Shown here: positions 2,537-17,028 of the stretch, piece by piece
Layout of the letters: each line of letters opens with the position of its first letter
How positions within the stretch are numbered: position 1 is the stretch's first letter
UHGV virus genome: UHGV-0162636
Reading direction: 5' to 3' (one strand)
Source: a virus
Length of the DNA stretch: 17,750 nt
Translations under genes and position numbers: made by a program
Notes under the pieces: generated by a model
What the model was told of the DNA's origin: nothing
The model's database searches: none
Seen by the model: only the letters and a program-made list of their open reading frames with translations

Positions 2537-2785
2537 TCATGCAGCTGCACTCACCGGGCGATAAACGCGGCGGTCAACTGGAGGCTTTTTTCCGGTGAAC
2601 GTCGCCGGGCTTGCCGCCTTACGTTTATCCAGCCAGGCTTCAACTTCGCTCTGGTCCCACGCACAGCGGCGGTCGGTGATCCAGAAACGAGACGGGAATT
2701 CGCCAGCCTGTTCCAGGCGGTCAATCGTGCTCCATGACAGTGGCACCACCGCCAGGAGTTCCTTCTTACCAAATGCACCTTTCAT
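2537..2785 (-). CDS. AlpA/Xis-like small DNA-binding protein (excisionase or transcriptional regulator)
   Basis: 82-aa ORF with LSWSTIDRLEQAGEFPSRFWITDRRCAWDQSEVEAWL, the winged-helix pattern of AlpA/Vis/excisionase proteins. GAGAGGT Shine-Dalgarno 5 nt before the ATG. Confidence 0.75.
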   Translation of the reverse strand: MKGAFGKKELLAVVPLSWSTIDRLEQAGEFPSRFWITDRRCAWDQSEVEAWLDKRKAASPATFTGKKPPVDRRVYRPVSAAA

Positions 2786-2834
2786 AAATACCTCTCTTGG
2801 TTGCAGGTGTGGCGCCGTGGCGCCACGGTGGTGA

Positions 2835-3716
2835 TTACATTGGGACTTCGTTCAGCTCATCTCGGCGGATGGTGTACACGTCAGTGGCTTTAGCCAGTCG
2901 GTCATCGTCGTTAGAGAGCTTGCTGGCAACGTATTTGTATGCCTTGTCCAGATCTTTCAGCGTGTTGTAGTTCATCGCTGCATCAGTGAAGGCGCACAGA
3001 ATTTCTTCTGGATCGCGGTCGTCGCTGCTCTTCGGCTTCTCCTCCTGGTGCTGCTCAGACTTGGAGTTGATCAGTTTGTTCATGCCGGACGCGGTAGCGG
3101 GTGTCGGCGTGATATCGCGCTCAACGCGCGGTGCCGTTTCCTGCAATTCGTCAGGGGTGTACACGCCAAGCAGGACGTCAGGGGAATGCAGGCGAGCCCA
3201 ACGCTTAACGCAAAGGTATGCGAGCTGCTGTCGAGGATCCTGCTCCCATAGAGGGGAGTTCCGAACACCGGCCTGGGCCATGCTGATCGTCAGCTCGCGC
3301 GGCTCTGATTCTCCTTTGAGGGTTGCCCATACGGTAACGGTCAGGTTCGGCGATTTGTCGGATTTCCCGTTTACTTTCGACCAGTCACCATCCCAGCGAT
3401 AATTCAGGCGGGTGGCCAGCAGATTGGAGGAGGACACAACCGCGTTTACCAGCTGCGCTTCATAACCAAGCGTGCCGTTAACCACATGTGTTTTCTGCGC
3501 CACAGCGAACGGGTTCATGCCCCACTGCGCCGCCTGCATGGTCACAGCCAGGCAGTCAGCAGGCTTTCCTGCCAGGTGCGCAGGAACGGTGGCCTTACTG
3601 TCAGCCATCAGGGTTGCGAAACGCACCAGGCGGTCCATGCCCTCAGGGCTGAAGATTGCCGCAGCGGTGCCAACGGTTGCGCCAGGCTGCGATGTGATTG
3701 CGATGTCGTTGCTCAT
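2835..3716 (-). CDS. recT: RecT/Bet-family single-strand annealing recombinase
   Basis: 293-aa ORF. MQAAQWGMNPFA and VERDITPTP segments parallel ANQYGLNPW and ERDITP in lambda Bet as I recall it. Start ATG overlaps the exonuclease stop (ATGA), implying translational coupling. Confidence 0.85.
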   Translation of the reverse strand: MSNDIAITSQPGATVGTAAAIFSPEGMDRLVRFATLMADSKATVPAHLAGKPADCLAVTMQAAQWGMNPFAVAQKTHVVNGTLGYEAQLVNAVVSSSNLLATRLNYRWDGDWSKVNGKSDKSPNLTVTVWATLKGESEPRELTISMAQAGVRNSPLWEQDPRQQLAYLCVKRWARLHSPDVLLGVYTPDELQETAPRVERDITPTPATASGMNKLINSKSEQHQEEKPKSSDDRDPEEILCAFTDAAMNYNTLKDLDKAYKYVASKLSNDDDRLAKATDVYTIRRDELNEVPM

Positions 3717-4534
3717 ACGTACTTATCCTGTTTGCGTGCCCACTCGGGGCGTTTGATAATTTCAAATCCACCCCATTCGCCAGACTCACGGCACTGGTGG
3801 TAGGTATTCAGATCCCGGCGGAACAGTGCATGCCCGGCGTCAACGTCCTGTGCATCCAGTTCGAAAACGCGCACCGGGTAGCGGCCGCAGTCGATGGTTT
3901 CGCTCACTGCCAGGAAAAAGAATCCGTGCGGCTCACCGGTGGTCTGCTGCGCGCCTTCGCGGTACATGGCGTCCTGAACGTGGTACCGGAATTCCTCGAT
4001 GTGGCGGGAGAACCGCTCCATGTCCGCAACCTTCTTTACGTCCAGCAGAACCGGATGATTCTTCAGGCGCTTATCCGGGCGAATGCGGCACAGCTCTCCG
4101 GTTTCCGAATCCGTCCAGTAGTGCGACGCTTCGCAGAAACCTTCCGCCTCAAGAAGCCAGCGCGCCGCCGGATGGGCCATCGCGCTGTCACGCATAAGAT
4201 TCAGCTTGCGGCCCTGTTCGGCATCCATAACCGTCATGCCCATGTTCTCGACATCTTTCAGGAACGCTGCTTCATCCTCTTTTCCGGCTGCTGTGCGGCG
4301 GTTGAACTGCGGCGCCACGATGAAACGCTTATCGAACTCTTCCGGCTCCAGCAGCAGGCAGTGCAGGGCGGTGCCCATATCCAGCGCTTTCAGCTTTTCG
4401 GTGTCGACCGGCGCTGATTTCTGCCATTGCAGCAGGGCCGGGCTCAACGCAACCATATCCAGCTGCGACTTACTCACGCCGTCTCCGGAGTGGTAATCCT
4501 CGTTGCTGATGTCGAAGTAAATTCCTGGCTTCAT
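3713..4534 (-). CDS. PD-(D/E)XK exonuclease (RecE/exonuclease VIII-like partner of RecT)
   Basis: 273-aa ORF beginning MKPGIYFDISNEDYHSGDGVSKSQL; contains RPD...LLDVKK consistent with a PD-(D/E)XK nuclease motif. Sits directly upstream of and coupled to recT. Confidence 0.8.
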   Translation of the reverse strand: MKPGIYFDISNEDYHSGDGVSKSQLDMVALSPALLQWQKSAPVDTEKLKALDMGTALHCLLLEPEEFDKRFIVAPQFNRRTAAGKEDEAAFLKDVENMGMTVMDAEQGRKLNLMRDSAMAHPAARWLLEAEGFCEASHYWTDSETGELCRIRPDKRLKNHPVLLDVKKVADMERFSRHIEEFRYHVQDAMYREGAQQTTGEPHGFFFLAVSETIDCGRYPVRVFELDAQDVDAGHALFRRDLNTYHQCRESGEWGGFEIIKRPEWARKQDKYV

Positions 4535-4830
4535 GCCGCGTTCCTCGCCGTGTCCAACTGGTCAGCCAGATCCCACTTCGCGATGATGCTGGTCAGCGCG
4601 CTCTGGAATGCAGCGAGAGTTTCTTCAAATTCCGGATTCATCATTAGCTCTTCCAGAATCTCCTTGCGCACGCCTTTGCGCTCCAGCGCATAGAAAGGTT
4701 CCTGCAGCTGGTGATGCTTAATGGCGTCGATCAGCTCTACCTGGCGCTCGTAGTGCAACTGGCTCAGCTGGTAGTCGCTGTCGATGCTGGTCATGATGCT
4801 TTTTAGGTTATTGATCTGCTGGATGTTCAC
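4531..4830 (-). CDS. Hypothetical early protein (99 aa, GTG start)
   Basis: ORF with GGGGGTGAG upstream of the GTG start; stop overlaps the exonuclease start (ATGA). Acidic, helical-looking sequence with no recognisable motif. Its position in a recombination module is compatible with a host-nuclease inhibitor or Kil-type function, but that is speculative. Confidence 0.6.
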   Translation of the reverse strand: MNIQQINNLKSIMTSIDSDYQLSQLHYERQVELIDAIKHHQLQEPFYALERKGVRKEILEELMMNPEFEETLAAFQSALTSIIAKWDLADQLDTARNAA

Positions 4831-4976
4831 TTGCTCACCCCCATATCCATTTCAGTTTTGACTGCCATCTTGGTGACAAACGCCCAGTTGATGGCCTCAT
4901 GCAGAGTGCGGCACTTAGTGCTCATCAGCCCGCACGCCGTAACGCAGTACCAACCGTTGATGATTTTCCACTGCAT
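4827..4976 (-). CDS. Small hypothetical protein (49 aa), first gene of the early-left operon; not in the ORF track
   Basis: Hand translation: MQWKIINGWYCVTACGLMSTKCRTLHEAINWAFVTKMAVKTEMDMGVSK. GAGGT lies 8-9 nt upstream of the ATG at 4976; the TGA stop overlaps the GTG start of the next gene. Confidence 0.35.
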   Translation of the reverse strand: MQWKIINGWYCVTACGLMSTKCRTLHEAINWAFVTKMAVKTEMDMGVSK

Positions 4977-4982
4977 AATTCG

Positions 4983-5008
4983 TTACCTCAGTGTTACCGT
5001 TGAGGTAA
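4983..5008. promoter_or_regulatory. Inverted repeat TTACCTCA-N10-TGAGGTAA overlapping a candidate leftward early promoter (operator-like)
   Basis: 8-bp arms at 4983-4990 and 5001-5008 share the TTACC/GGTAA half-site with the window-wide palindrome. A minus-strand TTGACT (-35, 5031-5036) and weak -10 lie just upstream in transcript terms. Confidence 0.45.
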
Positions 5009-5055
5009 TAATTATCCTTATGTGGTTTGAAGTCAATAGGTATGATTATAAAAAA

Positions 5056-5070
5056 TTACCTGTAAGGTAA
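5056..5070. promoter_or_regulatory. 15-bp palindrome TTACCTGTAAGGTAA (candidate operator, copy A)
   Basis: Perfect TTACCT-N3-AGGTAA. Located between the repressor-gene terminator and the leftward promoter. Confidence 0.55.
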
Positions 5071-5080
5071 CGCTTCTGGC

Positions 5081-5107
5081 AATAAAAAAGCCGCTCAATG
5101 GCGGCTT
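5081..5107 (-). terminator. Rho-independent terminator downstream of the repressor gene
   Basis: On the minus strand: 7-bp GC-rich stem (5088-5094 pairing with 5101-5107), 6-nt loop, followed by a TTTTATT run. Confidence 0.5.
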
Positions 5108-5127
5108 AGTATCTGAAATATATGGTT

Positions 5128-5718
5128 TTAATCTTGCGCTTTACCGTTCTGAACAATCACAAAATCGACGTAGCTCTCAATCTTGCTTTTCTCGCTCTCA
5201 GGTAACAATGCGTAGCGGGCCCGGTCGTAATGGATGGTCGCCGGGTCGCGGGGATGGATGAGCAACTCATAGCCGCGGCGCCCGAACGCGCCAGCGATCG
5301 CCTCCAGGGTGGAGATAGAAACGCTAACCTCATTGTTCAGCATGCGCTGGATTGTCGCCTGGGCAACGCCGGACGCTTTAGACACCTTTCCCTGAGACGA
5401 CAGGTCGCGGTTATTCTGCATCCACGCTTCGAGATTATGCGCCGCCAGCTGGCCGATATCGGAAGGGGTGATCTCCTCCTGCGGTATGGCAACAGCAGAT
5501 AATGAGTGGTCTACGTCCAGCCAGTTCGACGGCTTGTTCGCCGCCTTCTCAATCTTGCGCGCCACCGTGTCGCCGATAACCTTCTGCCCGCGGGCCCAGC
5601 GGTTCACCAGGTTGGCCTGAGTTCCCAGTTTTTCCGCCAGACGAGTCTGCACCCCGTTAAAGTCACGGTCGATGATATCGTTAATATTCTGCCTGCGGAT
5701 ATCCTGAATACTTTTCAT
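5128..5718 (-). CDS. Prophage repressor (CI-like) with two tandem XRE-type HTH domains and no LexA-like S24 peptidase domain
   Basis: 196-aa ORF. HTH-like segments GVQTRLAEKLGTQANLVNRWARGQ and KASGVAQATIQRMLNNEVSVSISTLEAIAGAF. No Ala-Gly/Ser-Lys autocleavage domain visible. Divergent from the Cro-like gene. Confidence 0.8.
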   Translation of the reverse strand: MKSIQDIRRQNINDIIDRDFNGVQTRLAEKLGTQANLVNRWARGQKVIGDTVARKIEKAANKPSNWLDVDHSLSAVAIPQEEITPSDIGQLAAHNLEAWMQNNRDLSSQGKVSKASGVAQATIQRMLNNEVSVSISTLEAIAGAFGRRGYELLIHPRDPATIHYDRARYALLPESEKSKIESYVDFVIVQNGKAQD

Positions 5719-5773
5719 GCTCTGGTGATTCGCCTCATATATGAATTAGTTAGTGGTTCAATTAAAAGCGAAT

Positions 5774-5788
5774 TTACCTCACAGGTAA
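5774..5788. promoter_or_regulatory. 15-bp palindrome TTACCTCACAGGTAA (candidate operator, copy B1) in the repressor/cro intergenic region
   Basis: Perfect TTACCT-N3-AGGTAA in the divergent promoter region; an additional GGTAA half-site follows at 5801-5805. Confidence 0.6.
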
Positions 5789-5821
5789 ATGCACCCGACA
5801 GGTAACAAACCTTGATTATTA

Positions 5822-5837
5822 TTACCTTCTGGGTGAA
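5822..5837. promoter_or_regulatory. Degenerate operator-like site TTACCTTCTGGGTGAA inside a candidate rightward promoter
   Basis: Lies between a TTGATT -35-like hexamer (5812-5817) and a weak -10 upstream of the Cro-like gene. One arm deviates (GGTGA instead of GGTAA). Confidence 0.4.
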
Positions 5838-5872
5838 TATTTGTTATCTGAAATTAATATCAGGCAATAGCT

Positions 5873-6103
5873 ATGAGCGAGAACGAAAAATTCGACTTCA
5901 AAAAACACTGGTTGCAACTCACTCCTGATGAGCGAAATGCCTTTGCTGACGAGGCAGGAACTACCAGCCATTACATCCAGACGCATCTGACAGGTCGCCG
6001 GAAAATGCCAGGTAAGACATTGATGAATGGGCTGTTTAAGGCATGCAAACAGCGCGGATGGGTCAGAACAAAGCCGGAACTGGCCATCTTCTTCTACGAA
6101 TAA
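5873..6103 (+). CDS. Cro-like small HTH regulator (YdaS/Cro family)
   Basis: 76-aa ORF divergent from the repressor; HTH-like LTPDERNAFADEAGTTSHYIQTHLTGRRKMPGKTL. Confidence 0.7.
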   Translation: MSENEKFDFKKHWLQLTPDERNAFADEAGTTSHYIQTHLTGRRKMPGKTLMNGLFKACKQRGWVRTKPELAIFFYE

Positions 6104-6124
6104 AACCTCCCTCTAAACCCCATC

Positions 6125-6147
6125 AGGCCGCCTTCTGGCGGTCTTTT
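6125..6147 (+). terminator. Hairpin plus short T-run after the Cro-like gene (tR1-like position)
   Basis: AGGCCGCC-ttct-GGCGGTC followed by TTTT. Short T tract, so probably a weak or conditional terminator. Confidence 0.4.
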
Positions 6148-6252
6148 CATATCTATTCAGTTCTCTCAGGTAATAATGATCCGAATATGGTTGATCTTTT
6201 TTCGGCCATCGCACAAAATTACCGTAATAGTAAACGTCAATGAGGTTGCGTA

Positions 6253-6462
6253 ATGGAGATTATCACTCGTCTGGACGCTGCAAAGGCAGGTCTTAAGCGT
6301 TATTACACCGGTAAAAAGTGCAAACACGGTCATGACAGTGAGCGTTACGTCTATAACGGCCATTGCGTTGAGTGCGCCATCAACTCAAGTCTGCGCCGCC
6401 AGGCGGAGATTAAACGGATTATGGATGAAGCTGCGAAAGGCAACGTGCCGGAGGTGATCTGA
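6253..6462 (+). CDS. Small zinc-ribbon-like protein in the cII position
   Basis: 69-aa ORF with CKHGH...NGHCVEC (four Cys/His ligand candidates). GAGG Shine-Dalgarno upstream; stop overlaps the start of the O-like gene. Confidence 0.55.
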   Translation: MEIITRLDAAKAGLKRYYTGKKCKHGHDSERYVYNGHCVECAINSSLRRQAEIKRIMDEAAKGNVPEVI

Positions 6463-7232
6463 TGGCCAGCAGCTGGATTAAGGTCGAGGTGATCACCCCT
6501 GATAAGCCTGAAATATTTCAGATAGCCGAGCTACTGAATATCGACCCGGATGCCGTTCTCGGGAAGCTGGTTCGCATCTGGGCATGGGCCGATCAGCAGA
6601 CAATAGACGGTAACGCTGGCAGCGTTACAAAGGGAGTACTGGACAGACTCGCTTTTATTACCGGATTCGCTGATGCATTGATCGCTGTTGGCTGGCTCGC
6701 ATATGTCGACGAAAAGCTGGTACTGCCTAACTTTGAGCGTCACAACGGTGAATCATCGAAAAAACGGGCACTTACAAACAGAAGAGTCGCAGAACACCGC
6801 AAACGTGAAACGCAAAATGTAACGCGAGCAGCGTTACAAAAAGAGTTACCAGAGGAAGAGGAAGATATAAATAAAACCCCTCTCTCTGCGCGCGAAGGAA
6901 TTCAAATCCCTCCCGTTGTCGTTCCAGGTATCGGGGAACCGATCGGCAAATTCACCATGCATGAAAACTGGCAGCCGTCAGATGACTTCGTCATGCGCGC
7001 CAGGATGTGGGGTCATGCACTTCCTGCAGACGGGTACAAGAAATCAGACCTGATTGAATTCATCACCTACTGGATGGCGGAAGGCAATGTGATGCAACAC
7101 GTGCAGTGGGAGCAGAAGTTTGCCCGGCTGCTGATGAACAGGAGAAAAAGAGCGGCAGGAAAGCGCGGTGACAGCTCTGACGATGACGTACCACACTGGA
7201 ACAGCCCTGAGGGCTGGAAGGATTTCTTATGA
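6462..7232 (+). CDS. Phage replication initiation protein (O-like, possibly with DnaT-like C-terminal domain)
   Basis: 256-aa ORF immediately upstream of and coupled to the P homolog. Contains an internal acidic linker (PEEEEDI) and two dyad-symmetric repeats in its coding sequence. Domain assignment is by position and weak recall. Confidence 0.6.
   Translation: MASSWIKVEVITPDKPEIFQIAELLNIDPDAVLGKLVRIWAWADQQTIDGNAGSVTKGVLDRLAFITGFADALIAVGWLAYVDEKLVLPNFERHNGESSKKRALTNRRVAEHRKRETQNVTRAALQKELPEEEEDINKTPLSAREGIQIPPVVVPGIGEPIGKFTMHENWQPSDDFVMRARMWGHALPADGYKKSDLIEFITYWMAEGNVMQHVQWEQKFARLLMNRRKRAAGKRGDSSDDDVPHWNSPEGWKDFL
6610..6628. repeat. Dyad-symmetric repeat GTAACGCTGGCAGCGTTAC (copy 1), candidate iteron or protein-binding site
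   Basis: 7-bp inverted arms GTAACGC/GCGTTAC around a 5-bp spacer, followed by AAAGGGAG. Repeated 209 bp downstream with 23/27 identity. Confidence 0.5.
6819..6837. repeat. Dyad-symmetric repeat GTAACGCGAGCAGCGTTAC (copy 2)
   Basis: Same arms as copy 1; followed by AAAAAGAG and an A/G-rich stretch. Confidence 0.5.
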
Positions 7233-8014
7233 ATAACGTATTCGCAGCAATTCAGAATCGTGATGCTGGTGCCATGGCTCGCATGATGGGCCCGGACAAT
7301 CACCATGATCAGCAGGACAACGTTGTTAACATCAGCGCAGAGCGTCTCGTCGATGCCCTGTTTAAACAGCTTAAGCAACTCTTTCCTGCAGCTGAGCAGA
7401 CCAACCTGAAGACCGCGCAGCAGGAAACCGACGCGAAGCGCCAGTGGATAGCCGCATTCGCTGAAGGTGGGATCCGTACCCGCGAGCAGGTATCGGCAGG
7501 TATGCGTCATGCCCGCGCCAGTGAATCACCGTTCTGGCCTTCGCCCGGGCAGTTCATCAAGTGGTGCAAGGACAGCAAAATGGTGCTTGGCGTGAGCATC
7601 GAGGACGTGATGGGGGAGTTTCACCGTTACGCCAAAGAGAAAAGCTTACAGCCCGGAGGACCTGAGAGATTCCCGTGGCGCCACCCGGTCATGTACTGGA
7701 TTGTATGCGATACCCGCCGTGCGATGTACCAGCGCCAGCTGAGTGAGGTGGAAGTTGAGAGGCATGCGCGCAAACTGCTTGAGGAATGGGCTACGAAAGT
7801 GGCGGCCGGTCACCAGATTCCGGATCCGGTTCTCAGCATCCAGGCGAAGCCAGAGCCGATACAAACACCGGATGACACAGGGGGGAGTGCTTACCACCCT
7901 CCCGGAAAAAGCTTCGGATGCATGCCGAATTCCGCCACCCTTGGAGGGCTGACACCGGCCCAGTGGTTGATGGAGGAATACCGGCGAGGGAAGGCAGCGG
8001 GACTCATCAGGTAG
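7229..8014 (+). CDS. P: Replication protein P homolog (DnaB helicase loader, lambda P family)
   Basis: 261-aa ORF. LFPAAEQTN...KRQWIAAFAEGGIRTREQVSAGMRHARASESPFWPSPGQFIKWCKD aligns by eye with lambda P (FPASLANRDQ...RRQWVLAFRENGITTMEQVNAGMRVARRQNRPFLPSPGQFVAWCRE), recalled from memory. Confidence 0.85.
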   Translation: MNNVFAAIQNRDAGAMARMMGPDNHHDQQDNVVNISAERLVDALFKQLKQLFPAAEQTNLKTAQQETDAKRQWIAAFAEGGIRTREQVSAGMRHARASESPFWPSPGQFIKWCKDSKMVLGVSIEDVMGEFHRYAKEKSLQPGGPERFPWRHPVMYWIVCDTRRAMYQRQLSEVEVERHARKLLEEWATKVAAGHQIPDPVLSIQAKPEPIQTPDDTGGSAYHPPGKSFGCMPNSATLGGLTPAQWLMEEYRRGKAAGLIR

Positions 8015-8051
8015 CACCAGCGCGGCAGCGCATTTTTTTACGCCTGTATAA

Positions 8052-8066
8052 TTACCTTGCTGGTAA
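8052..8066. promoter_or_regulatory. Variant palindrome TTACC-TTGCT-GGTAA (copy C1)
   Basis: Same 5-bp half-sites at the same centre-to-centre spacing as the perfect copies, but the inner base pair differs. Confidence 0.4.
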
Positions 8067-8113
8067 CAAAATATGCGCATAGCTATTTATTTTAACTCTA
8101 ATGTGGATTTAAA

Positions 8114-8128
8114 TTACCTGAGAGGTAA
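8114..8128. promoter_or_regulatory. 15-bp palindrome TTACCTGAGAGGTAA (copy C2) overlapping the ribosome-binding site of the 8132 gene
   Basis: Perfect TTACCT-N3-AGGTAA ending 3 nt before the ATG at 8132; the GAGGT inside it is the likely Shine-Dalgarno. Confidence 0.55.
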
Positions 8129-8131
8129 GCC

Positions 8132-8923
8132 ATGACAGCAATATTAGGGATTGACCCGGGATGCAGCGGGGCGCTGGTTCTCGTAACTGAGCAGGGCGGA
8201 TACATCGACCATCTGGCAATGCCAACCATCAAGGTCGGCACAAAGTCCAGGGTGAACGGCGCAGCGGTAGCTGCATGGGTTCGGCAGTACGGAATCACTC
8301 ATGCGTACCTAGAGCAGGTCGGAGCCATGCCAGGACAGGGAACGGCAAGCATGTTCACGTTCGGGCATGCAGCTGGCGTACCGGCGCTTAAATTCCTCGC
8401 TTCATACATAGCAGGCACGACATTGGCTGGGATGTTTGCAAACCAGATGAACAGCCTATTGACCGGCAATGACCCACTGGATATGACAAAGCCAACTACA
8501 TGGGTGCAGGCTCTGCTGAAGGGCGGCTCATTCGGTATCTACGGCGATTTCCTTTTCCAGGACCATACGCAATATGGATCCAGTATCGCGGCCACCATCG
8601 GGGGGCCGGTGCTGAGCTTCGCCGAGCAGTTAACCAAACTTCTGATCACGAACCCGCAGAAGGCATTGCAGGGCGAAGAAACTTCTTTCGGTGCCGATGC
8701 GCTGAAGACGGCGCGCATGATCACCCCATTCGCCAACCTCTGGTACGCGAAAGCCATTACCAACCACCTGATACTCCAGCAACTTCAGGAGATGGCTAAC
8801 CCAGGGTATAACGACAGGGTGCGTGACAGAGCGCAGCGTGAATTCAACACGACGAGCTGGTGGGAGCCTGGCGAGACAACGCCTCGCCGCGCACCAGACC
8901 TCGGGAAGGCAGTGGGGCAATAA
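8132..8923 (+). CDS. Chimeric ORF: RuvC-like Holliday-junction resolvase N-terminus (about 85 aa) fused to an unrelated C-terminal segment, possibly a virion or DNA-injection protein fragment
   Basis: N-terminus MTAILGIDPGCSGALVLV matches the RuvC-type ILGIDPG motif. After about residue 85 the sequence no longer resembles a resolvase. A complete resolvase would be about 160 aa. Confidence 0.5.
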   Translation: MTAILGIDPGCSGALVLVTEQGGYIDHLAMPTIKVGTKSRVNGAAVAAWVRQYGITHAYLEQVGAMPGQGTASMFTFGHAAGVPALKFLASYIAGTTLAGMFANQMNSLLTGNDPLDMTKPTTWVQALLKGGSFGIYGDFLFQDHTQYGSSIAATIGGPVLSFAEQLTKLLITNPQKALQGEETSFGADALKTARMITPFANLWYAKAITNHLILQQLQEMANPGYNDRVRDRAQREFNTTSWWEPGETTPRRAPDLGKAVGQ

Positions 8924-9114
8924 TGGATATATTGATCAAGATAGGCATGATTCTGTTCTGGTTTGCGTTCTTCGTGGTATGCGGCACGGCGTATGTTTGG
9001 GCGGTAATATTCGCTATCAGAAAAGGTTGGCTTGGCGAGACCTCTGCGAAGGTCGTTTACTTCGCGACCTTCGTCATTCTCGCGGCTATAGTGTTTAAGC
9101 TACCATTACTGTGA
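8923..9114 (+). CDS. Small hydrophobic membrane protein (63 aa, two predicted TM segments)
   Basis: Internal ATG at 8923 overlaps the TAA of the upstream ORF. Sequence MDILIKIGMILFWFAFFVVCGTAYVWAVIFAIRKGWLGE...FATFVILAAIVFKL is strongly hydrophobic. Confidence 0.5.
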   Translation: MDILIKIGMILFWFAFFVVCGTAYVWAVIFAIRKGWLGETSAKVVYFATFVILAAIVFKLPLL

Positions 9115-9123
9115 CATGTCACA

Positions 9124-9146
9124 AGGCCGCTATGCGGCCTTTTTTT
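9124..9146 (+). terminator. Rho-independent terminator (probably works for both convergent genes)
   Basis: AGGCCGC-tat-GCGGCCT stem-loop followed by TTTTTT. The T-run overlaps the stop codon of the minus-strand gene. Confidence 0.6.
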
Positions 9147-9405
9147 AAGTCGTTTCCTGCTTCAGTTTTTCCACACAGTAATCGAGATGCATCTGCAGAT
9201 CCTTCATGGACATCTGCGAGCTGGTGACGTAGTTCACCAAGGCAGTTAGTTCCGCCATCGGGCCATCAACGTTAAATCCGTCCTCATTCAGTTGTCGCAG
9301 CAACGTCATCAGATGTGATTCTTCTACAAGGGAGCGGACGCCTCCCGGCGTGTGTATGCGTTCGGCAAATCCTTTTTCCAGCGGGTGATGATACTGACGT
9401 TGCAT
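9145..9405 (-). CDS. Small SOS-regulated protein (86 aa), candidate antirepressor or moron of unknown function
   Basis: ATG at 9405 with GGAGAA Shine-Dalgarno; the track's TTG start at 9423 is less likely. A near-consensus LexA box lies 20-39 bp upstream. No motif recognised in the protein. Confidence 0.55.
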   Translation of the reverse strand: MQRQYHHPLEKGFAERIHTPGGVRSLVEESHLMTLLRQLNEDGFNVDGPMAELTALVNYVTSSQMSMKDLQMHLDYCVEKLKQETT

Positions 9406-9424
9406 CTCATGTTCTCCATGCAAT

Positions 9425-9444
9425 TACTGTATGTATGTACAGTA
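9425..9444. promoter_or_regulatory. LexA (SOS) box TACTGTATGTATGTACAGTA
   Basis: CTGT-N8-ACAG with an AT-rich spacer, matching the enterobacterial SOS-box consensus TACTGTATATATATACAGTA at 18 of 20 positions. Immediately upstream of the 9145..9405 gene. Confidence 0.65.
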
Positions 9445-9481
9445 GCAAAACTTTGAAACACTATCCAGCACGATATGAGCT

Positions 9482-9496
9482 TTACCTGAAAGGTAA
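9482..9496. promoter_or_regulatory. 15-bp palindrome TTACCTGAAAGGTAA (copy D) between the SOS-regulated gene and the tailspike gene
   Basis: Perfect TTACCT-N3-AGGTAA; a further AGGTAATAA half-site at 9541-9549. A TATAAG -10-like hexamer lies about 30 bp downstream on the plus strand. Confidence 0.55.
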
Positions 9497-9600
9497 TAAC
9501 TTTCATGATTGTTATTCATTCAATTCATATAAGGTTTGCTAGGTAATAAACTGTCCAGATGATGCATGCGCGCCGGGCGCTGCTTTATTGGAGACAGGCC

Positions 9601-12351
9601 ATGACGGTATCAACCGTAGTTGACCATAACGATTACACCGGGAACGGCGTTACGACATCATTCCCTTACACCTTCCGAATTTTCAAGAAAGCAGACCTTA
9701 CCGTTTCAGTGATTGACCTGAGCGAAAACATCACGGTACTGGTGCTGGATACTGACTACACCGTGACGAACGCTGGTGGCTTTAACGGCGGAAGTGTTGT
9801 TCTTACCTCGCCGCTGGCGAACGGTTGGCAAATATCGATTGCCCGCGAGCTGGAGGCAACGCAGGAAACAGACCTGCGCAATCAGGGTAAGTTTTTCGCT
9901 GAGGTGCATGAAGATGCATTCGATAAACTGACGATGCTGATTCAGCAGGTGGGCAGTTTGTTCAGCCTGGCATTGCGTAAACCGTCGTTTGTGGCAAATT
10001 ATTACGATGCCATGAGTAACTATATTAGAAATCTGCGAGATCCGGTAAGGCCACAGGATGCAGCAACTAAAAATTATGCTGATTCATTAAGCGAAGGAAA
10101 TACTTCACATACAGATTTGTTATTCAGCAGAACGCTTCGTACGGAAGAAAGCATCCCACAATTACCATCTATTGAGTTACGAAAAAATAAAATTGTTGGT
10201 ATGGATTCATCTGGTAATCCGATTATGCTTCTTCCGGAAAGCGGAAGCGCAGCGGATGTCCTCATTGAATTAGCAAGCACTGATGATGGGAAGGGGGATT
10301 CCTTAATTGGCGTAAAACAGCCTTATGCTGGAGCGGTAGGGCGTACGCAGCATGATTTTAACGCGCAGTTTATCAGTATTAAAGACTTCTTAGGCGATGA
10401 ATATTCCGGCGCAACGGACGCCTCACCGGCATTCTCTACCGCAAACGCCCTAGTGCCAAAGGGCAAGCAAATTCTCGTTCCTGCTGGAAACTACATGCTC
10501 AATACCGAAGTGGACTGCTACGGCCGCCACTTCATTTTTGAAGAGCCAGTAACGATAACAGGAACCGGATATCTTCGCCGTGCTGTTGTTCAGCGTATTG
10601 ATGGTGGTTCCGGGGCTGTAAGTATTGGAACTGAAGGCGTTCGCGGTTCGGATGGGCACCCGCAATTTGGTGTTAACTTCAGGTTTGGGAGCAATGCTGG
10701 CAATGTATCCGGTCTACAGGTTGGTGGCGGAAACCCAATTAATGGAACTTATGGTAATGTTTTCTTTCCGGATGGCTATTCGTCATGGACTTCAGTACAA
10801 CCAAGTAAATACCCAAGCCCGACAGAGATCGCAGTCCAGCCAGCTTCTCGCGCGGGTAAATGCACAACTGTTGCCGGAACTAATATCGTAAATGTAAATA
10901 CAGGACCAGGCTTAACGGTTGATGAAATTGGAAAAACAATATGGATCAGGGATGCTGGGTATACGGTGGTATCAGTGGCATCAGGATCATTTACAGTGAA
11001 AAACATCGATAACAGCGCGGTGTCATTTCCGTCATCAATATCTGCAACCTATGTATGCTGTTACATTTGGGGGCAGGGTAAATGCAATGTATCGGGGAAG
11101 AAAATTATTCGTATATCTGGCGACCCATTTATTCCGCTCAACAATATACAAACTACGTTCGTAGTGAATGGCATTACGACTGTACAGGCATCATATTCTG
11201 ATTCTTGGTTAGCCACACTTACCGCGGATGTAGGTATTGCTGATAATGTCGACTATTATTGGTGGGGTAGTGTAGATAACTTAGTTACTGCATTGCGTAT
11301 GCATCGTGTTACCGGAGCTGGATTTGAAGAAAATATTTCTCTTATTGCTTCTGCTCGGGGATTTTATCACCTACACGCAGCTGGTGGTAACGGTGACCAG
11401 TATCCAGTATTTATTGGTAGTGGGTGGGATCCGGACGGCAATGCACGACGACAGATCACTGTTGATGGTGTAAATGGCATAGTCACTATAGGGGGGGCAT
11501 ACGGGCGAGCATGTGCAGAGTTCGGTTATCGCACATACTCTTCTGGAGACGTGAATAGATTTCGTTTTGATAGTGCCACTACTGGTGATCAACCTGCTTT
11601 TAGCGCTGTCGGCCCTGATGCGAATATAAATACTATTCTGGCCGCGAAAGGTAATGGGTTTATTCAAATAAATAATGAACTACATTTTAATGCCGCTATT
11701 TACCCGCATGTAGATAATATGTTTACCGTTGGTAAATCTGGAAATCGCCCTTCATCTATTTGGGCTGCAAATGGAACAATTCAAACATCTGATGGAACTT
11801 TAAAAACTGATGTGGCTGAAAGCAACTTATCGATAGAGTTTATTAAAGGGCTGCATCCGGTATCATATCGTTTCATCAGTGGGGGGAATGTTGTTGAAGA
11901 AATTGATGACGGATTTGAATATATAGAACGGCAGGTCACTGAGATTATCCATAGTACAGAAGAGATTAACGAGCGAATTAATGTTGATGGTGTAATCAAA
12001 TTTGTAAGAAAATATGTTACAAAAGAAGTTGAGCACCCGGTATTTGATACTGTTAACGTTGAAGACGAAAACGGTAGTTTCCTTGAGACGGTCAGCATTC
12101 CTCGCATGGAAACTGTAAGGGTACCAAAGAAAAAAACGGTTATCACTTCGGTTGCCGGTAAGCGTACCCATTACGGCTTTATCGCTCAGGAAGTTAAAGC
12201 CCTACTTGATCAACTCGGCACTGGCGACTTTGGTGGATATGTAGAGGGTGAAGATGGGGAGATTGGTTTACGTTATGAACAATTCATAGCACCAATTGTA
12301 TCAGCGATGCAAGATGTAATAAAAAGAATTGAAAAATTGGAAGGCAATTAA
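9601..12351 (+). CDS. Tailspike/tail fibre protein: conserved N-terminal anchor, central beta-helix depolymerase-like domain, C-terminal intramolecular chaperone (peptidase S74-like) domain
   Basis: ATG at 9601 with GGAGACAGG Shine-Dalgarno (the track's start at 9559 is less likely). N-terminus TVSTVVDHNDYTGNGVTTSFPYTF...DAATKNYADS is tail-fibre-anchor-like. Centre has DDGKGDSLIGVKQP...FISIKDFLGDEYSGATDASPAF, resembling pectate-lyase-fold tailspikes. C-terminus SDGTLKTDV...HYGFIAQEVKALL...IEKLEG is typical of auto-cleaving chaperone domains. Confidence 0.8.
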   Translation: MTVSTVVDHNDYTGNGVTTSFPYTFRIFKKADLTVSVIDLSENITVLVLDTDYTVTNAGGFNGGSVVLTSPLANGWQISIARELEATQETDLRNQGKFFAEVHEDAFDKLTMLIQQVGSLFSLALRKPSFVANYYDAMSNYIRNLRDPVRPQDAATKNYADSLSEGNTSHTDLLFSRTLRTEESIPQLPSIELRKNKIVGMDSSGNPIMLLPESGSAADVLIELASTDDGKGDSLIGVKQPYAGAVGRTQHDFNAQFISIKDFLGDEYSGATDASPAFSTANALVPKGKQILVPAGNYMLNTEVDCYGRHFIFEEPVTITGTGYLRRAVVQRIDGGSGAVSIGTEGVRGSDGHPQFGVNFRFGSNAGNVSGLQVGGGNPINGTYGNVFFPDGYSSWTSVQPSKYPSPTEIAVQPASRAGKCTTVAGTNIVNVNTGPGLTVDEIGKTIWIRDAGYTVVSVASGSFTVKNIDNSAVSFPSSISATYVCCYIWGQGKCNVSGKKIIRISGDPFIPLNNIQTTFVVNGITTVQASYSDSWLATLTADVGIADNVDYYWWGSVDNLVTALRMHRVTGAGFEENISLIASARGFYHLHAAGGNGDQYPVFIGSGWDPDGNARRQITVDGVNGIVTIGGAYGRACAEFGYRTYSSGDVNRFRFDSATTGDQPAFSAVGPDANINTILAAKGNGFIQINNELHFNAAIYPHVDNMFTVGKSGNRPSSIWAANGTIQTSDGTLKTDVAESNLSIEFIKGLHPVSYRFISGGNVVEEIDDGFEYIERQVTEIIHSTEEINERINVDGVIKFVRKYVTKEVEHPVFDTVNVEDENGSFLETVSIPRMETVRVPKKKTVITSVAGKRTHYGFIAQEVKALLDQLGTGDFGGYVEGEDGEIGLRYEQFIAPIVSAMQDVIKRIEKLEGN

Positions 12352-12358
12352 GTAGATT

Positions 12359-12391
12359 GGTGGGGCTTACGCCCCACCTTTTTATTTTTTT
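12359..12391 (+). terminator. Rho-independent terminator after the tailspike gene
   Basis: GGTGGGGC-ttac-GCCCCACC stem-loop followed by TTTTTATTTTTTT. Confidence 0.7.
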
Positions 12392-13500
12392 AATTCTGAT
12401 AATTGTTTTTCGATTTTTGAAACTCTTTCATCAAGTTTTAGTAGGTCATTTAATTTCTTGCCATTAATGTAAACATCCCCATTAATGTAAACGCCGCCAT
12501 CGTTGTCGACTGCAAGAACTTCTTTAGTATTATCATTTGAGACTATACGAGTTCCACCTTCGCCGTTTCTTATTGAAATCCAGTTGCGCTTATCTTCTGA
12601 ACCGTTCCAGCGAGTGCCTCCATATATTTCTCCCGACTTTCCTTCATTCAAGATAATACCGGTACCAACACCTTCTGTGCGTGCCTGCATTATCCCTTCG
12701 CGGAATAGAGATCGCCTAAAGTCAAAACCCATCTTGGCTTTATCAAAATCAGCAACAATGAGCCTGCCATAATCAGCTATAGAATTCTTGAAGTAAATCC
12801 CACTTTCCCAGACACCGCGACGCTTCTCTGCTGGTACATCTTTATCTGTATCTTCGCTTCGCACTTCTACGGCCATGGAGTTTGGATTTCCAAAGCCAAC
12901 TATCTGTAAGCCCACTTTGGACTTATTGGGGAATACTCCGGGCTTGCCGCCATTAAGGACATCAATCTCAACCCCTACGAGTTGGTTATCATAGTCTTCT
13001 GGATTGAATGTGAAATCTGAACCAGCCGGTGCCAGATCATGATATTTCCCATCCTTTGTAAAGGCCTTGAAATATGAACGAGCGCTAAAGAATGCCCCCC
13101 ACGCCTTTGAGTCTTTAGCAATGGCAGCAGAATCACCCCAGATGGAGACAGCGTTGGTGTTTGGTTTAAAATTCCATACTTCACTCAGGAAGTTTTGATA
13201 GTGATTGTGAACGCTATCATAATTATCGGCATTCTGATTTGTTAAATCATGGGCTTTTACTGGCTCACCTTTCCAGTTGTAGAACTGTGAATTAGGTTCA
13301 ATGACATCAGTGAGAATTTCATGACCGCGCAGGGCTGTATCAAGACCTTCGTATTGAGTCCAAATGCCATTTGCTCTTGGGTGATTACCTCTTACAGTAA
13401 CCTCATTTAATTTTTCATTGCCATTATCATCTTGTGAATATCCCGGCCCTGATATAAAAAGGCAACTTAATCCAAAAACAAAAAAAGAATTAACTTTCAT
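12382..13500 (-). CDS. Secreted protein of unknown function with Sec-type signal peptide (AT-rich cargo gene)
   Basis: 372-aa ORF. N-terminus MKVNSFFVFGLSCLFISGPGYSQ has the n/h/c-region architecture of a signal peptide. C-terminus has GGVYINGDVYINGKKL and a coiled-coil-like tail. GAGGAA Shine-Dalgarno. GC content well below the flanking phage genes. Confidence 0.7.
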   Translation of the reverse strand: MKVNSFFVFGLSCLFISGPGYSQDDNGNEKLNEVTVRGNHPRANGIWTQYEGLDTALRGHEILTDVIEPNSQFYNWKGEPVKAHDLTNQNADNYDSVHNHYQNFLSEVWNFKPNTNAVSIWGDSAAIAKDSKAWGAFFSARSYFKAFTKDGKYHDLAPAGSDFTFNPEDYDNQLVGVEIDVLNGGKPGVFPNKSKVGLQIVGFGNPNSMAVEVRSEDTDKDVPAEKRRGVWESGIYFKNSIADYGRLIVADFDKAKMGFDFRRSLFREGIMQARTEGVGTGIILNEGKSGEIYGGTRWNGSEDKRNWISIRNGEGGTRIVSNDNTKEVLAVDNDGGVYINGDVYINGKKLNDLLKLDERVSKIEKQLSELKK

Positions 13501-13501
13501 C

Positions 13502-13741
13502 TTACAAATTCCTCACTATTATTACATTTACATTTTGTAGCAGGATGGTATGTTGCCAAATTTTTTGGTTGTTATAATTATCATCACATCTTTCAGTGTC
13601 TGAAATAAAACATTCGTGTTCGTTTTTATATTTATTCCACGCTTTTTGCTCCATTTGATTATCGATTGCGGAAAGAGCAAGAACTGCAAACAGCGCTATT
13701 GCAAAAGAGAGGGATATGTATTTGATAATTTTGCCAATCAT
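13502..13741 (-). CDS. Small membrane-anchored or secreted Cys-containing protein (79 aa), co-oriented with the secreted protein
   Basis: Hydrophobic segment ISLSFAIALFAVLALSAI followed by a polar region with three Cys (ECFISDTERC). No clear Shine-Dalgarno; AT-rich. Confidence 0.35.
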   Translation of the reverse strand: MIGKIIKYISLSFAIALFAVLALSAIDNQMEQKAWNKYKNEHECFISDTERCDDNYNNQKIWQHTILLQNVNVIIVRNL

Positions 13742-13952
13742 GATGGTTTTCTTTTGATATCACCAGGTGGCACGATTCTGCCATGACAAATGACAAAAAA
13801 CCAGTTGGTAGCTTACACCACTGGCATGTCTGATTGTGATTATGAAGCTGCTGTATTTTTACTGATGGTAACAATTAACCACATATGGTTTATTGTGTAT
13901 GATGGACTCACCAACTAAGGGGGTTCTATATGCACAATAAACGGTGGTCACT

Positions 13953-14357
13953 ATGTCAACCACGCTGACAACAGAGTCACTCAATCAGGGGTTTAGCCTT
14001 GGTGCGCTGGCTTCCGTCGTCGCCGGGGTTCCTCCTGAGGTGGCTTTAGGGGCGCTCGCTGGCGCGGTAATTTTTGTTACCTCAGCAGTTGAGTATCCTA
14101 TAAAGCGCCGGCTTCTCCTGGCGCTTCTCAGCTTCCTCTGCGGTGTTCTCTTCTATAAAGCGACAGCTTCCATTCTGATTGGCTTTGCCAGCCTGATACC
14201 GACGATTACGCAGGACTCTTTTGAGAAGGGCATTGTGTATTCAGCCGGGGCATTCGTGTCGGCAATCGTCGCTGTTCGCATTGGCATCTGGCTGTATCAC
14301 CGTTCTGAAAATCCGCGCGACCTGATTCCGGGGAGAAAAGACGATGACCAGTCCTGA
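13953..14357 (+). CDS. Putative holin (multi-TM small membrane protein)
   Basis: About 134 aa from the ATG at 13953 (GGTGG Shine-Dalgarno-like run upstream; the track's GTG at 13944 is the alternative). At least three hydrophobic segments and a charged C-terminus (PGRKDDDQS). First gene of the lysis cassette. Confidence 0.6.
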   Translation: MSTTLTTESLNQGFSLGALASVVAGVPPEVALGALAGAVIFVTSAVEYPIKRRLLLALLSFLCGVLFYKATASILIGFASLIPTITQDSFEKGIVYSAGAFVSAIVAVRIGIWLYHRSENPRDLIPGRKDDDQS

Positions 14358-14637
14358 GCTGCTTCTCATCCTTAACGCCGCTATCTGCGGCGGCATTGCA
14401 ATCCGAGTGCTTCTGTTCCGTCGTGACGGGTCACGCCATCGCTGGTGGGGGGGATGGCTCGCCTACCTGTTGATCGTCGTGGCCGCCAGCGTACCTATCC
14501 GGACGTTTTACGGGTACTACGTCAGCGCCGACTGGTCAGAAGTCATCATTAAAGCCGTGTTCCTGGCTGCGCTCATCAAGACAAAAGGGAATGTGGTACA
14601 AATTTTCAAGATAACGAGGTCCCAGCATGGACATTAA
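14344..14637 (+). CDS. Second small lysis-cassette membrane protein (holin, antiholin or LysA-like)
   Basis: 97-aa ORF with hydrophobic segments (LLILNAAICGGIAIRVLL; WLAYLLIVVAASV). GGGGAGAAA Shine-Dalgarno. Overlaps both neighbours by a few codons. Confidence 0.55.
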   Translation: MTSPELLLILNAAICGGIAIRVLLFRRDGSRHRWWGGWLAYLLIVVAASVPIRTFYGYYVSADWSEVIIKAVFLAALIKTKGNVVQIFKITRSQHGH

Positions 14638-15256
14638 CCAATTCCGCCGCGCCGCCGGTATCAGTGAGGTGCTGGCCACGCGCTGGTATCTGCATATCAC
14701 CGCGGCAATGAAAGAGTTTGGCATCGAACAACCGCTGCACCAGGCGATGTTTATCGCGCAGGTCGGGCATGAGTCTACCGGCTTTACCCGGCTGCAGGAA
14801 AACTTCAACTACAGCGTAGCAGGGCTGGCAGGTTTCGTCCGTACCGGGCGCCTAACTCAGGGTCAGGCTAACGCGCTGGGCCGTCGTGCTGGTGAACCAT
14901 CGTTACCGCTGGAGCGCCAGCGTGCGATCGCCAACCTGGTGTACAGCAAAAGAATGGGGAACAACGGTCCGACTGACGGCTGGTTTTACCTCGGGCGCGG
15001 GCTTATCCAGATCACCGGGCTGAACAACTATCGCGACTGCGGCAATGGCCTGAAGGTGGATCTGGTTAAGCAGCCTGAGCTGCTGGCGCAGGACGAATAC
15101 GCGGCCCGCAGCGCGGCGTGGTTCTTCGCAACCAAAGGCTGCATGAAGTACACCGGCGACCTGGTGCGCGTCACGCAGATCATCAATGGTGGGCAGAACG
15201 GCATCGACGACCGGCGTGCGCGGTATATCACTGCCAGTAAGGTGCTGGCGGTATGA
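14627..15256 (+). CDS. Endolysin, glycoside hydrolase family 19-like (chitinase-fold lysozyme)
   Basis: 209-aa ORF with AMFIAQVGHESTGF and YLGRGLIQITGLNNY, recalled as GH19 endolysin hallmarks. No N-terminal TM or SAR segment. GAGGT Shine-Dalgarno. Confidence 0.85.
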   Translation: MDINQFRRAAGISEVLATRWYLHITAAMKEFGIEQPLHQAMFIAQVGHESTGFTRLQENFNYSVAGLAGFVRTGRLTQGQANALGRRAGEPSLPLERQRAIANLVYSKRMGNNGPTDGWFYLGRGLIQITGLNNYRDCGNGLKVDLVKQPELLAQDEYAARSAAWFFATKGCMKYTGDLVRVTQIINGGQNGIDDRRARYITASKVLAV

Positions 15257-15735
15257 TCTGGGCATTCGTCAAAGCGTACTGGAAACAGTTGCTTATCGTG
15301 GCGATGCTTGCTGCTCTGGTAATCGGCGGCAGGGTTGCCTGGAATGTACACGGCAGCCACCAGTACGATGCCGGGTATGCGCAGGCAAAGGCAGATCAGA
15401 AACAGGCTGATGATAAAGCTCGTCAGCATGACGAACAGGAAAAAGCGACCAATGAACGTGAAGCGCAGCAGAGGATCGACCAGGCGCGCAATGATGCTCT
15501 TGATGCTGCCGCTCGCGCTGGCCGGTTGCAGCAACAGCTCGTTGCCATCCGTGAGCAGCTCAGGCAGTATAACGCCACTATCGGCACTGGGGCGTCAGCC
15601 GCAGACACCGGAGTTTTGCTTGCCGACGTGCTCAGCAAATCTCTCGAGCGAAACCGACAACTGGCAGAGTACGCTGACCGGGCCGCCGAAGCCGGACGAG
15701 TCTGTGAAAAGCAGTACGATTCGCTGACACGGTGA
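15253..15735 (+). CDS. Rz: i-spanin (Rz-like): N-terminal TM segment plus periplasmic coiled coil
   Basis: 160-aa ORF; LLIVAMLAALVIGG TM segment, then a Q/A/R/E-rich helical region. Start overlaps the endolysin stop (ATGA). Confidence 0.8.
   Translation: MIWAFVKAYWKQLLIVAMLAALVIGGRVAWNVHGSHQYDAGYAQAKADQKQADDKARQHDEQEKATNEREAQQRIDQARNDALDAAARAGRLQQQLVAIREQLRQYNATIGTGASAADTGVLLADVLSKSLERNRQLAEYADRAAEAGRVCEKQYDSLTR
15452..15727 (+). CDS. Rz1: o-spanin (Rz1-like lipoprotein) embedded in the +1 frame of the Rz gene
   Basis: Alternative-frame ORF with signal peptide and lipobox (MNVKRSRGSTRRAMMLLMLPLALAGC), followed by a Pro/Ser-rich mature region. Lies entirely within Rz. A start at ATG 15491 is also possible. 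Confidence 0.7.
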   Translation: MNVKRSRGSTRRAMMLLMLPLALAGCSNSSLPSVSSSGSITPLSALGRQPQTPEFCLPTCSANLSSETDNWQSTLTGPPKPDESVKSSTIR

Positions 15736-16509: not shown

Positions 16510-17028
16510 TTAGCTCTTTTCAGGACATTTAGTATTTGGCTGAATACGCGTTTCGTTATACGTTGTGGTAATAACAACGGCTAAACCTGTCGTAAACTGG
16601 CACTCTTTACCCACCTGGGTAGAGGTATACACTTTGGTGCCTTCCTTATATGTTAAAGAAACACCTTCCACTAAGGTTTTATCATTCACCATAGAACCCG
16701 CTGCCGCGCCTACAGCTCCGCCGCCAACTGCCCCTGCCGTCGTTCCGGAATTGCTGCCAGAACCGACGTTGTGGCCGATAACACCGCCAGCAACTGCGCC
16801 AATAAGCGCGCCGAAGGCTTGTGCGTTCCGTTTATTTTGGGAGTTGTCTACGGCAACTTTTGCGGGAAGAATGGAAATAATATTAACGGTTTTAGTTTCT
16901 TGTTTGGTATTCAGTTGATCGGTTTGATAAACATCGGCGGCATGATCGTCAGCATTTGACTGGCATCCTGCCAGAGTGAATGACGCTAACATTGCCACAG
17001 GCAGAAGACATTTTTTAAATTTCATCAC
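16510..17028 (-). CDS. Glycine-zipper outer-membrane lipoprotein (SlyB/Pcp-like)
   Basis: 172-aa ORF; lipoprotein signal with lipobox LAGC; central GALIGAVAGGVIGHNVG...AGAVGGGAVGAAAG glycine-zipper repeats. Confidence 0.7.
   Translation of the reverse strand: MMKFKKCLLPVAMLASFTLAGCQSNADDHAADVYQTDQLNTKQETKTVNIISILPAKVAVDNSQNKRNAQAFGALIGAVAGGVIGHNVGSGSNSGTTAGAVGGGAVGAAAGSMVNDKTLVEGVSLTYKEGTKVYTSTQVGKECQFTTGLAVVITTTYNETRIQPNTKCPEKS

Follow-up and report, generated by a model that had tools for sequence, protein, structure and literature searches.

The question raised by this locus is what role is played by an apparently exported protein encoded between the tailspike and lysis genes of a prophage remnant. 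The locus lies in the virus genome UHGV-0162636, a stretch of 17,750 nucleotides (nt) which we call the window, and positions 1-15735 of the window make up a prophage remnant of 15.7 kb, inserted in E. coli between guaA and yfgI. The gene in question, an open reading frame (ORF) for 372 amino acids (aa) designated ORF372, occupies 12382-13500 on the minus strand. Our answer, to which we give slightly less than an even chance, is that ORF372 is a periplasmic, probably trimeric, polysaccharide-directed lysogenic-conversion factor. A reading made earlier from the letters of this DNA (the sequence-only reading) had proposed the exported protein as a candidate new conversion factor; it stays a good candidate, and the searches described below placed it in no known family. 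According to our proposal, ORF372 would be exported, its signal peptide would be cleaved, and the protein would form a trimeric fibre-like assembly in the periplasm by means of its C-terminal coiled coil. There it would meet the exported polysaccharide, linked to undecaprenyl or to lipopolysaccharide (LPS), and would bind, trim or chemically alter it. The cell surface would then be without the receptor for the adjoining tailspike, and with this receptor lost, the lysogen would be shielded from superinfection and would have an altered surface antigen.

ORF372 is a real gene under purifying selection. This is indicated by 188 homologues at E≤1e-3 (E down to 1e-240), all of them named 'hypothetical' and none with Pfam domains, and by the comparison with an 82%-identical homologue from the Klebsiella/Raoultella group, in which the nonsynonymous divergence (dN) is 0.12 while the synonymous sites are saturated. 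A GAGGA sequence is located 9 nt before the ATG. The two minus-strand ORFs of the sequence-only reading, ORF372 and the smaller ORF79, were confirmed at their positions, convergent with the tailspike gene and divergent from the holin gene. The N-terminus of ORF372 reads MKVNSFFVFGLSCLFISGPGYS, with QDD following the putative cleavage point. K2 makes up the n-region, residues 5-16 are hydrophobic, with a 12-residue window mean of 2.33 on the Kyte-Doolittle (KD) scale, and the putative cleavage site is a small/small -3/-1 site, G-Y-S before Q, as read from the sequence. The putative signal peptide thus covers residues 1-22 (13435-13500, minus strand), and ORF372 looks like a Sec-exported protein to which the signal peptidase I pattern fits, as the sequence-only reading had described. 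A lipoprotein was rejected, because G at -3 makes FGLSC a poor lipobox. The conserved domain, delimited by family alignments, spans residues ~36-350 (12451-13395, minus strand), and it is followed by a C-terminal helix or coiled coil at residues ~350-371 (12388-12453, minus strand), which is a confident helix in both of our AlphaFold models. Just ahead of this helix, the GGVYINGDVYING repeat (GDVYING GDVYING) arises from an 18-nt tandem duplication at 12461-12496 on the minus strand. The repeat and coiled-coil tail noticed earlier are therefore both present, in the sequence and in the models.

The family of ORF372 is rare but widespread, since an exhaustive profile search found 152 family representatives among 1.84 billion proteins, distributed over many phyla. 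Identities to ORF372 are 70% in Paenibacillus, 53% in Pseudomonas and 46% in Oryzibacter, and further members were found in Brucella/Ochrobactrum, Microvirga, Thiobacillus, Planctomycetes, Acidimicrobiia and one Dojkabacteria genome. ORF372 aligns full-length with the family and shares its motifs. It gave no match in Pfam, NCBIfam or PHROGs (E≤0.1-1) or in PADLOC, and neither did ORF79. When 112 relatives were searched one by one against Pfam at E≤1, only scattered noise was obtained; no homology to Acyl_transf_3, GtrA/GtrB/GtrC, Wzy or polymerase inhibitors was detected in ORF372 or these relatives. The phage-borne paralogues had no match in PHROGs, and a 430-aa paralogue had none in PADLOC. 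Sequence searches of the PDB with the single ORF372 sequence and with the family profile found nothing, hhalign of the family against the neighbouring tailspike detected no relation between the two, and literature searches by accession and topic found no description of the family. The absence of a recognised motif noted in the sequence-only reading was thus borne out by these databases, and profile and structure searches assigned ORF372 to no characterised family.

For the structure, a first AlphaFold run with 112 close relatives gave a poor core (predicted local distance difference test, pLDDT, 68.7), and after distant subfamilies were added the mean pLDDT was 82.5 and the predicted TM-score (pTM) was 0.70. 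In the latter model, residues 60-260 are mostly at pLDDT 72-90 (~49-70 around residues 80-120) with intrachain beta ladders almost nil, and beta hairpins after residue 260 lead into the long C-terminal helix. From the few intrachain strands, and from the use of the domain in obligate trimers of the YadA type, we infer that the model represents one chain out of an intertwined trimer. Foldseek returned nothing significant for the model, and its top ranks were HylP hyaluronate lyases and phage fibres. The predicted fold would therefore be novel, or else distantly related to trimeric phage fibre enzymes.

How such a protein would act on a glycan is suggested by its conserved residues and by its domain combinations. 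The family motifs are H-N-H-Y-Q at 98-102, W-G-D at 121-123, S-A-R-S at 139-142, D171...G-x-E178-x-D180-x-x-N183, K195, V-G-F-G at 201-204 and G-x-D260, and the invariant or near-invariant polar residues among them are H98-N-H-Y-Q102, W121-G-D, S-A-R-S, D171, E178, D180, N183, K195 and D260. The most distant subfamilies keep W121, D171, E178, D180, N183 and K195, and have lost the HNHYQ motif. The invariant H98-N-H-Y-Q102, D171, E178, D180 and K195 hint at an enzyme. A glycan-binding or glycan-masking protein is hinted at by the cytoplasmic fusions of the domain with glycan enzymes and by its use as an adhesin head. These fusions are with polysaccharide pyruvyl transferase, sulfotransferase and FkbM methyltransferase; the relatives P0195, P0198, P0213 and P0218, fused to glycan-decorating enzyme domains, are without signal peptides. 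At least 8 YadA-anchored trimeric autotransporters have the family domain as their N-terminal head; the YadA anchor and stalk (PF03895, PF05662), present in the relatives P0233 and P0371, were not found in ORF372. With regard to export, an N-terminal hydrophobic segment occurs in 91 of the 112 core members (81%), 68 of these 91 have a C-terminal one too, and 15 of the 112 have neither. The 430-aa paralogue of E. coli has an AYA site before I and a C-terminal transmembrane (TM) segment.

The gene neighbourhoods outside phages narrowed the candidate function to surface-glycan biology, beyond what the sequence-only reading had considered. Non-phage members are mostly found inside operons for O-antigen or surface-layer (S-layer) glycan of the type that depends on an ATP-binding cassette (ABC) transporter. 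The members of P. tarimensis and P. urinalis (Paenibacillus) lie inside S-layer-glycan-type clusters with Wzm/Wzt carrying Wzt_C, WsaF-like rhamnosyltransferases, Methyltransf_24, rmlABCD, a Wzy_C-type transferase and Bac_transf. The O-locus L004, with ugd and gnd beside the family gene, contains the 82%-identical relative; the Klebsiella/Raoultella-group taxon of this locus was assigned via the gnd protein cluster. Within 8 kb of the family gene, the WsaF/HAD-GT family was present at 20 of 34 loci, Wzt at 12 and GT2 at 12, and the two nearest neighbours per side in 32 species were mainly glycosyltransferases, NTP_transferase, ABC_tran and HAD. A distant subgroup of 530 aa adjoins a WsaE-like methyltransferase-glycosyltransferase. 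It is conceivable, though we hold it doubtful, that the family carries out a hitherto unrecognised extracytoplasmic step of ABC-transporter-dependent glycan assembly, and that temperate phages took over a soluble version as a new, non-membrane kind of seroconversion enzyme matched to their tailspike. With the same reserve, the protein would then be a membrane-anchored or soluble trimeric enzyme acting on the O-antigen or S-layer glycan after export.

As a separate observation on these clusters, proteins of ~680-730 aa with an N-terminal HAD-like domain recur by the family genes, along with WsaF-like transferases (L004 2531-4606 and 5824-7860; L025 12311-14449; L016 12320-14395). They share a BLAST cluster with the WsaF-like transferases, and their C-terminal part is without a Pfam match; a 691-aa neighbour in L004 had no Pfam match whatsoever.

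The same neighbourhoods bear on another explanation, in which ORF372 would be a periplasmic superinfection-exclusion protein of a non-glycan kind, binding a tail, ejection or envelope protein and thereby blocking DNA entry. Temperate phages do have exported or membrane exclusion proteins, such as Cor, Llp and SieA, and a predicted exported moron product antisense to the late genes, with a fibre-like predicted fold and a coiled coil, would suit this role. However, the family occurs mainly in polysaccharide operons in non-phage DNA of many phyla, PADLOC gave no match, and sister prophages have O-antigen acetylases in the slot of ORF372. We consider this explanation quite unlikely.

In phage DNA, a family member adjoins a homologous Peptidase_S74 tailspike in three prophage lineages. 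The first comprises the window and the Phytobacter-like prophage L043, which has the same lysis genes; its 430-aa paralogue shows 44% identity and its tailspike 68%. The second is L045, a dusA-integrated E. coli prophage that carries the 430-aa paralogue; its tailspike is ~97% identical from residue 222 onwards. The third is represented by a Pseudomonas element; its tail fibre shows 45% identity N-terminally and 31% in the receptor part. The 430-aa paralogue occupies the same slot in apparently complete prophages of many E. coli assemblies and was indexed in 195 collection blocks. L044, EC2, PT62 and ETEC4090 are sister prophages at the same guaA-yfgI site. In L044 (E. coli), EC2 and PT62, an O-antigen acetyltransferase (Acyl_transf_3, PHROG 3333) is encoded between tailspike and holin, and in ETEC4090 this slot is empty. 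The L044 tailspike has its N-terminus in common with the window tailspike, and its receptor part only weakly. The slot thus behaves as a receptor-modification slot, whose content changes with the tailspike and is not strictly determined by it. ORF372 itself is placed like a seroconversion moron: it converges on the tailspike gene, runs antisense to the late genes, and has a leader of its own and a terminator. This placement, together with the acetyltransferases of the sister prophages, supports the earlier suggestion that a moron-type gene sits here in a slot used for lysogenic conversion.

The orientation is also pertinent to a lytic-cycle accessory, either a secreted, receptor-destroying depolymerase that would free progeny from debris or a protein conditioning the envelope before lysis. 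This idea draws on the weak structural resemblance to phage depolymerases, on the Pseudomonas member, which is co-oriented and begins 43 nt after the tail fibre gene, and on the lysis cassette next to ORF372. In both enterobacterial backbones, on the other hand, a terminator separates the gene from the late operon, to which it is antisense, and the gene has its own leader; the protein has a putative signal peptide in place of a virion-attachment domain, and it is absent from the sequenced virulent and temperate phage isolates searched. A lytic role is accordingly given little credence. Two related candidates were rejected: a spanin or lysis protein, as an Rz-like spanin is already in the cassette, and a tail-fibre chaperone, as an S74 chaperone domain is already part of the tailspike and ORF372 is predicted to be exported.

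The base composition of the region was compared with that of its flanks. The guanine-plus-cytosine (GC) content is 0.44 at 10213-12351, 0.41 in ORF372 and 0.35 at 13501-13943, against 0.55 at 1-9000 and 0.575 in the lysis genes. The AT-rich drop reported in the sequence-only reading is thus confirmed; the single cargo islet that it had proposed gives way to three modules with separate histories. These are, as the alignments indicate, the receptor part of the tailspike, the single-gene cassette of ORF372 and the leader, each exchanged separately.

The tailspike of 930 aa (9559-12351, plus strand; PHROG tail families, PF13884) begins with a part for particle binding, which extends to ~10212; a receptor-binding or enzymatic part follows, and a Peptidase_S74 chaperone domain forms the C-terminus. 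The DNA of the window at 10213-12365 is 94.8% identical to L045 8312-10463, which belongs to the tailspike of the dusA prophage, a prophage of a different type with a T7-like terminase and a different lysozyme. In the two proteins, residues ~222-930 are ~97% identical and the N-terminal particle-binding parts ~25%, so that the mosaic tailspike is, by these identities, a clean case of phages of different types exchanging a tailspike module. The Sf6 tailspike in the PDB matches residues 240-316, and the closest tail proteins of isolated phages are those of a Pantoea autographivirus (73%) and of N4-like phages of E. coli (46%). Pantoea phage ROV85 and the E. coli phages FH3 and vB_EcoP-ZQ2 have tail proteins with 46-73% identity in the receptor part. 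The terminator scan found a strong, GC-rich stem-loop at 12359-12378 (8 pairs, 7 GC) with T-runs on both sides. It probably serves as a bidirectional terminator for the tailspike and ORF372 genes, which converge on it. The homology with the dusA prophage stops at 12365, within this stem-loop, and this is the 3' junction of the ORF372 cassette. The cassette thus consists of one gene between the tailspike/terminator junction and the leader junction.

The AT-rich leader extends from the holin start to the cargo ATG (13498-13943, minus strand). It is ~90% identical to the leaders of L043 and L044, which both have the same lysis cassette with other cargo, and in these comparisons the homology fades no more than ~50 nt past the cargo ATG. 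Promoter-like hexamers are found on its minus strand at 13604-13577 and 13559-13532, and the cargo promoter presumably lies within the leader. Rfam gave no match for the leader or the whole window.

ORF79 (13502-13741, minus strand; 79 aa) is inside this shared leader, and its coding status is uncertain. The description of it as hydrophobic and Cys-containing was accurate, with a segment of KD 2.5 over 18 residues and two Cys. One may suppose that ORF79 and ORF372 form a two-protein unit in which ORF79 would be a membrane partner, anchor or regulator. The hydrophobic segment is TM-like, a single nt separates the ORF79 stop from the ORF372 ATG, and a 57-codon core compared with L043 has 8 synonymous and 7 nonsynonymous differences, giving a ratio of nonsynonymous to synonymous divergence (dN/dS) of 0.17 (Fisher p=0.0016). 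In addition, the stop of ORF79 in L043 overlaps the ATG left from the replaced cargo gene, and the homology of the three loci apparently reaches ~50 nt into the signal-peptide coding region of ORF372, which suggests that leader and ORF372 were originally one unit. Conversely, only 3 near-identical protein clusters of ORF79 homologues were found among 5.8 billion, and indels in two other copies put the start in another frame and changed the C-terminal ~20 residues, so that the three copies disagree in their N- and C-terminal frames. The same leader also stands before an acetyltransferase and before the 430-aa paralogue; no such ORF accompanies the family gene upstream in the dusA prophage or in glycan operons; and ORF79 has no evident Shine-Dalgarno sequence. 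A two-protein unit is therefore judged very unlikely. The few clusters and broken frames, set against the dN/dS of the core, leave the gene status of ORF79 uncertain, and it may be a lineage-specific leader peptide or small protein. It is not cargo, as the sequence-only reading had it, and the ORF372 family does not keep it as a conserved partner; the leader in which it lies serves various cargo genes.

Several observations weigh against a conversion factor. All functional statements on ORF372 are ones that we infer, and from position and neighbourhood only, and no known catalytic motif was found in the protein. The family domain also works in the cytoplasm and is not exclusively periplasmic, as judged from the members that lack a signal peptide or are fused to cytoplasmic enzymes. 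ORF372 was absent by tblastn from 50,697 phage isolate genomes, and the family is missing from PHROGs. The pairing of tailspike type with cargo type is loose, since tailspikes of ~30% identity in the receptor domain pair once with an acetylase and once with a family member. The remnant has no head, tail or terminase genes; besides its integrase, recombination, immunity and replication genes it kept one tailspike and the lysis cassette. The segment 12300-14000 is present in 6 of 5426 complete E. coli genomes, every time at the guaA-yfgI site, and the ORF372 gene is 100% identical across these 6, so that its retention may reflect recent ancestry and not selection. In two of the 6 hosts, moreover, the O-loci are unrelated, O112ac in EP91B and a decayed O23 in PM4, and an attempt to name the target glycan from the host O-types failed on this difference. 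Separately, the O112ac locus of EP91B encodes a polysaccharide pyruvyl transferase (L052 19736-20665), of the class that is fused to the family domain elsewhere; no link between the two was established.

Part of this evidence would also fit an inert passenger, captured through recombination with an enterobacterial O-antigen locus, persisting in a decaying prophage and contributing nothing to the present hosts. The lack of morphogenesis genes, insertion sequence (IS) elements in the copies of other strains (ISEc53 with a ClbS-like gene, and IS1A truncating the tailspike), the identity among the 6 genomes, where intactness may mean recent descent, and the destroyed O-locus of one host are all in line with it, as is the GC content of ORF372 (41%), which equals that of the Klebsiella-group O-locus homologue. 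Against a passenger, the identical protein was reported on 143 contigs and its 90% cluster takes in Phytobacter, Lelliottia, Atlantibacter and Citrobacter; the 430-aa paralogue holds the same slot in apparently complete prophages; ORF372 is intact in the copy where IS1 truncates the tailspike; and purifying selection is strong across the family. We therefore regard a passenger as unlikely, and the glycan-directed conversion factor remains our preferred reading.

This conversion factor can be compared with known systems. Morons for O-antigen acetyltransferases of the Oac/OafA type (Acyl_transf_3) are carried by Sf6 and related seroconverting phages. They are single-gene cassettes in the same slot between tailspike and lysis genes, or at the prophage end, of sister prophages, and their presumed purpose is the same, that is, altering the receptor of the phage's own tailspike. 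In contrast, Oac is a polytopic membrane acyltransferase, whereas ORF372 is predicted to be exported, largely soluble and probably trimeric, and the sequences are unrelated. The trimeric fibre or tailspike depolymerases, such as the streptococcal HylP hyaluronate lyase and gp83 of Acinetobacter phage Solidus, have no sequence similarity to ORF372, which differs from them in having a putative signal peptide and not a virion-binding N-terminus, in lying on the strand opposite to the virion and lysis genes, in its absence from sequenced phage isolate genomes, and in a catalysis that its residues only hint at. YadA-type adhesins have the same domain as their N-terminal head, with D171, E178, D180 and K195 kept, but ORF372 is without the YadA stalk and anchor and has a short coiled-coil end instead. 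WcaM of the colanic-acid cluster is an exported beta-helix protein whose role within the polysaccharide operon is unknown. It may be likened to ORF372 as an exported tailspike-like protein of unknown function in a surface-polysaccharide cluster; this is an analogy only. WcaM belongs to a Wzx/Wzy-type pathway, whereas the ORF372 family goes with Wzm/Wzt, and no homology was detected.

The remainder of the remnant contains an integrase (50-1300), MT-A70, RecT and nuclease genes, a cI-like repressor (5128-5718) and the DnaT-like and lambda-P replication genes (6462-8014), followed by a 263-aa ORF (8132-8923, plus strand), which has no Pfam or PADLOC match and lies at what is probably a deletion junction, with the replication genes on one side and the tailspike on the other. 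The lysis cassette (13944-15735, plus strand), with two holins (the first at 13944-14357), a GH19 endolysin and an Rz-like spanin, forms the right end, and the chromosomal yfgI and yfgH follow. A search of the window found no attachment-site (att) direct repeats of at least 15 nt. Two 28-nt direct repeats inside the DnaT-like gene (6610-6637 and 6819-6846), 86% identical and each with a short palindrome, look like origin iterons. The chromosomal yfgH (16510-17028, minus strand; glycine-zipper lipoprotein-like) matches PHROG 1277, labelled 'DNA methyltransferase' (E=5e-111), and yfgI matches PHROG 1094; these PHROGs probably include host genes taken up along with prophage predictions, and the label appears to be mistaken. 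In PT62, two DUF262-domain genes lie between the spanin gene and yfgI (L056 8366-11595), possibly a second cargo slot at the prophage end, perhaps for defence genes.

To our knowledge, the known phage seroconversion genes encode either tiny polymerase inhibitors or membrane enzymes (Gtr, Oac, Wzy variants). If our reading is true, receptor change and superinfection immunity would here come about by a new mechanism, through a soluble, exported, trimeric protein, and ORF372 is a good candidate for a conversion gene of a new type, from an unannotated glycan-pathway family. This family is highly conserved (70% between Enterobacteriaceae and Paenibacillus), lacks a domain annotation, and is found in glycan operons of many phyla. 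We know of no soluble or anchored periplasmic processing factor in the ABC-transporter pathway, and an understanding of what the ORF372 family does would fill this gap in glycan assembly; the phage copies would offer a simple single-gene handle on that function.

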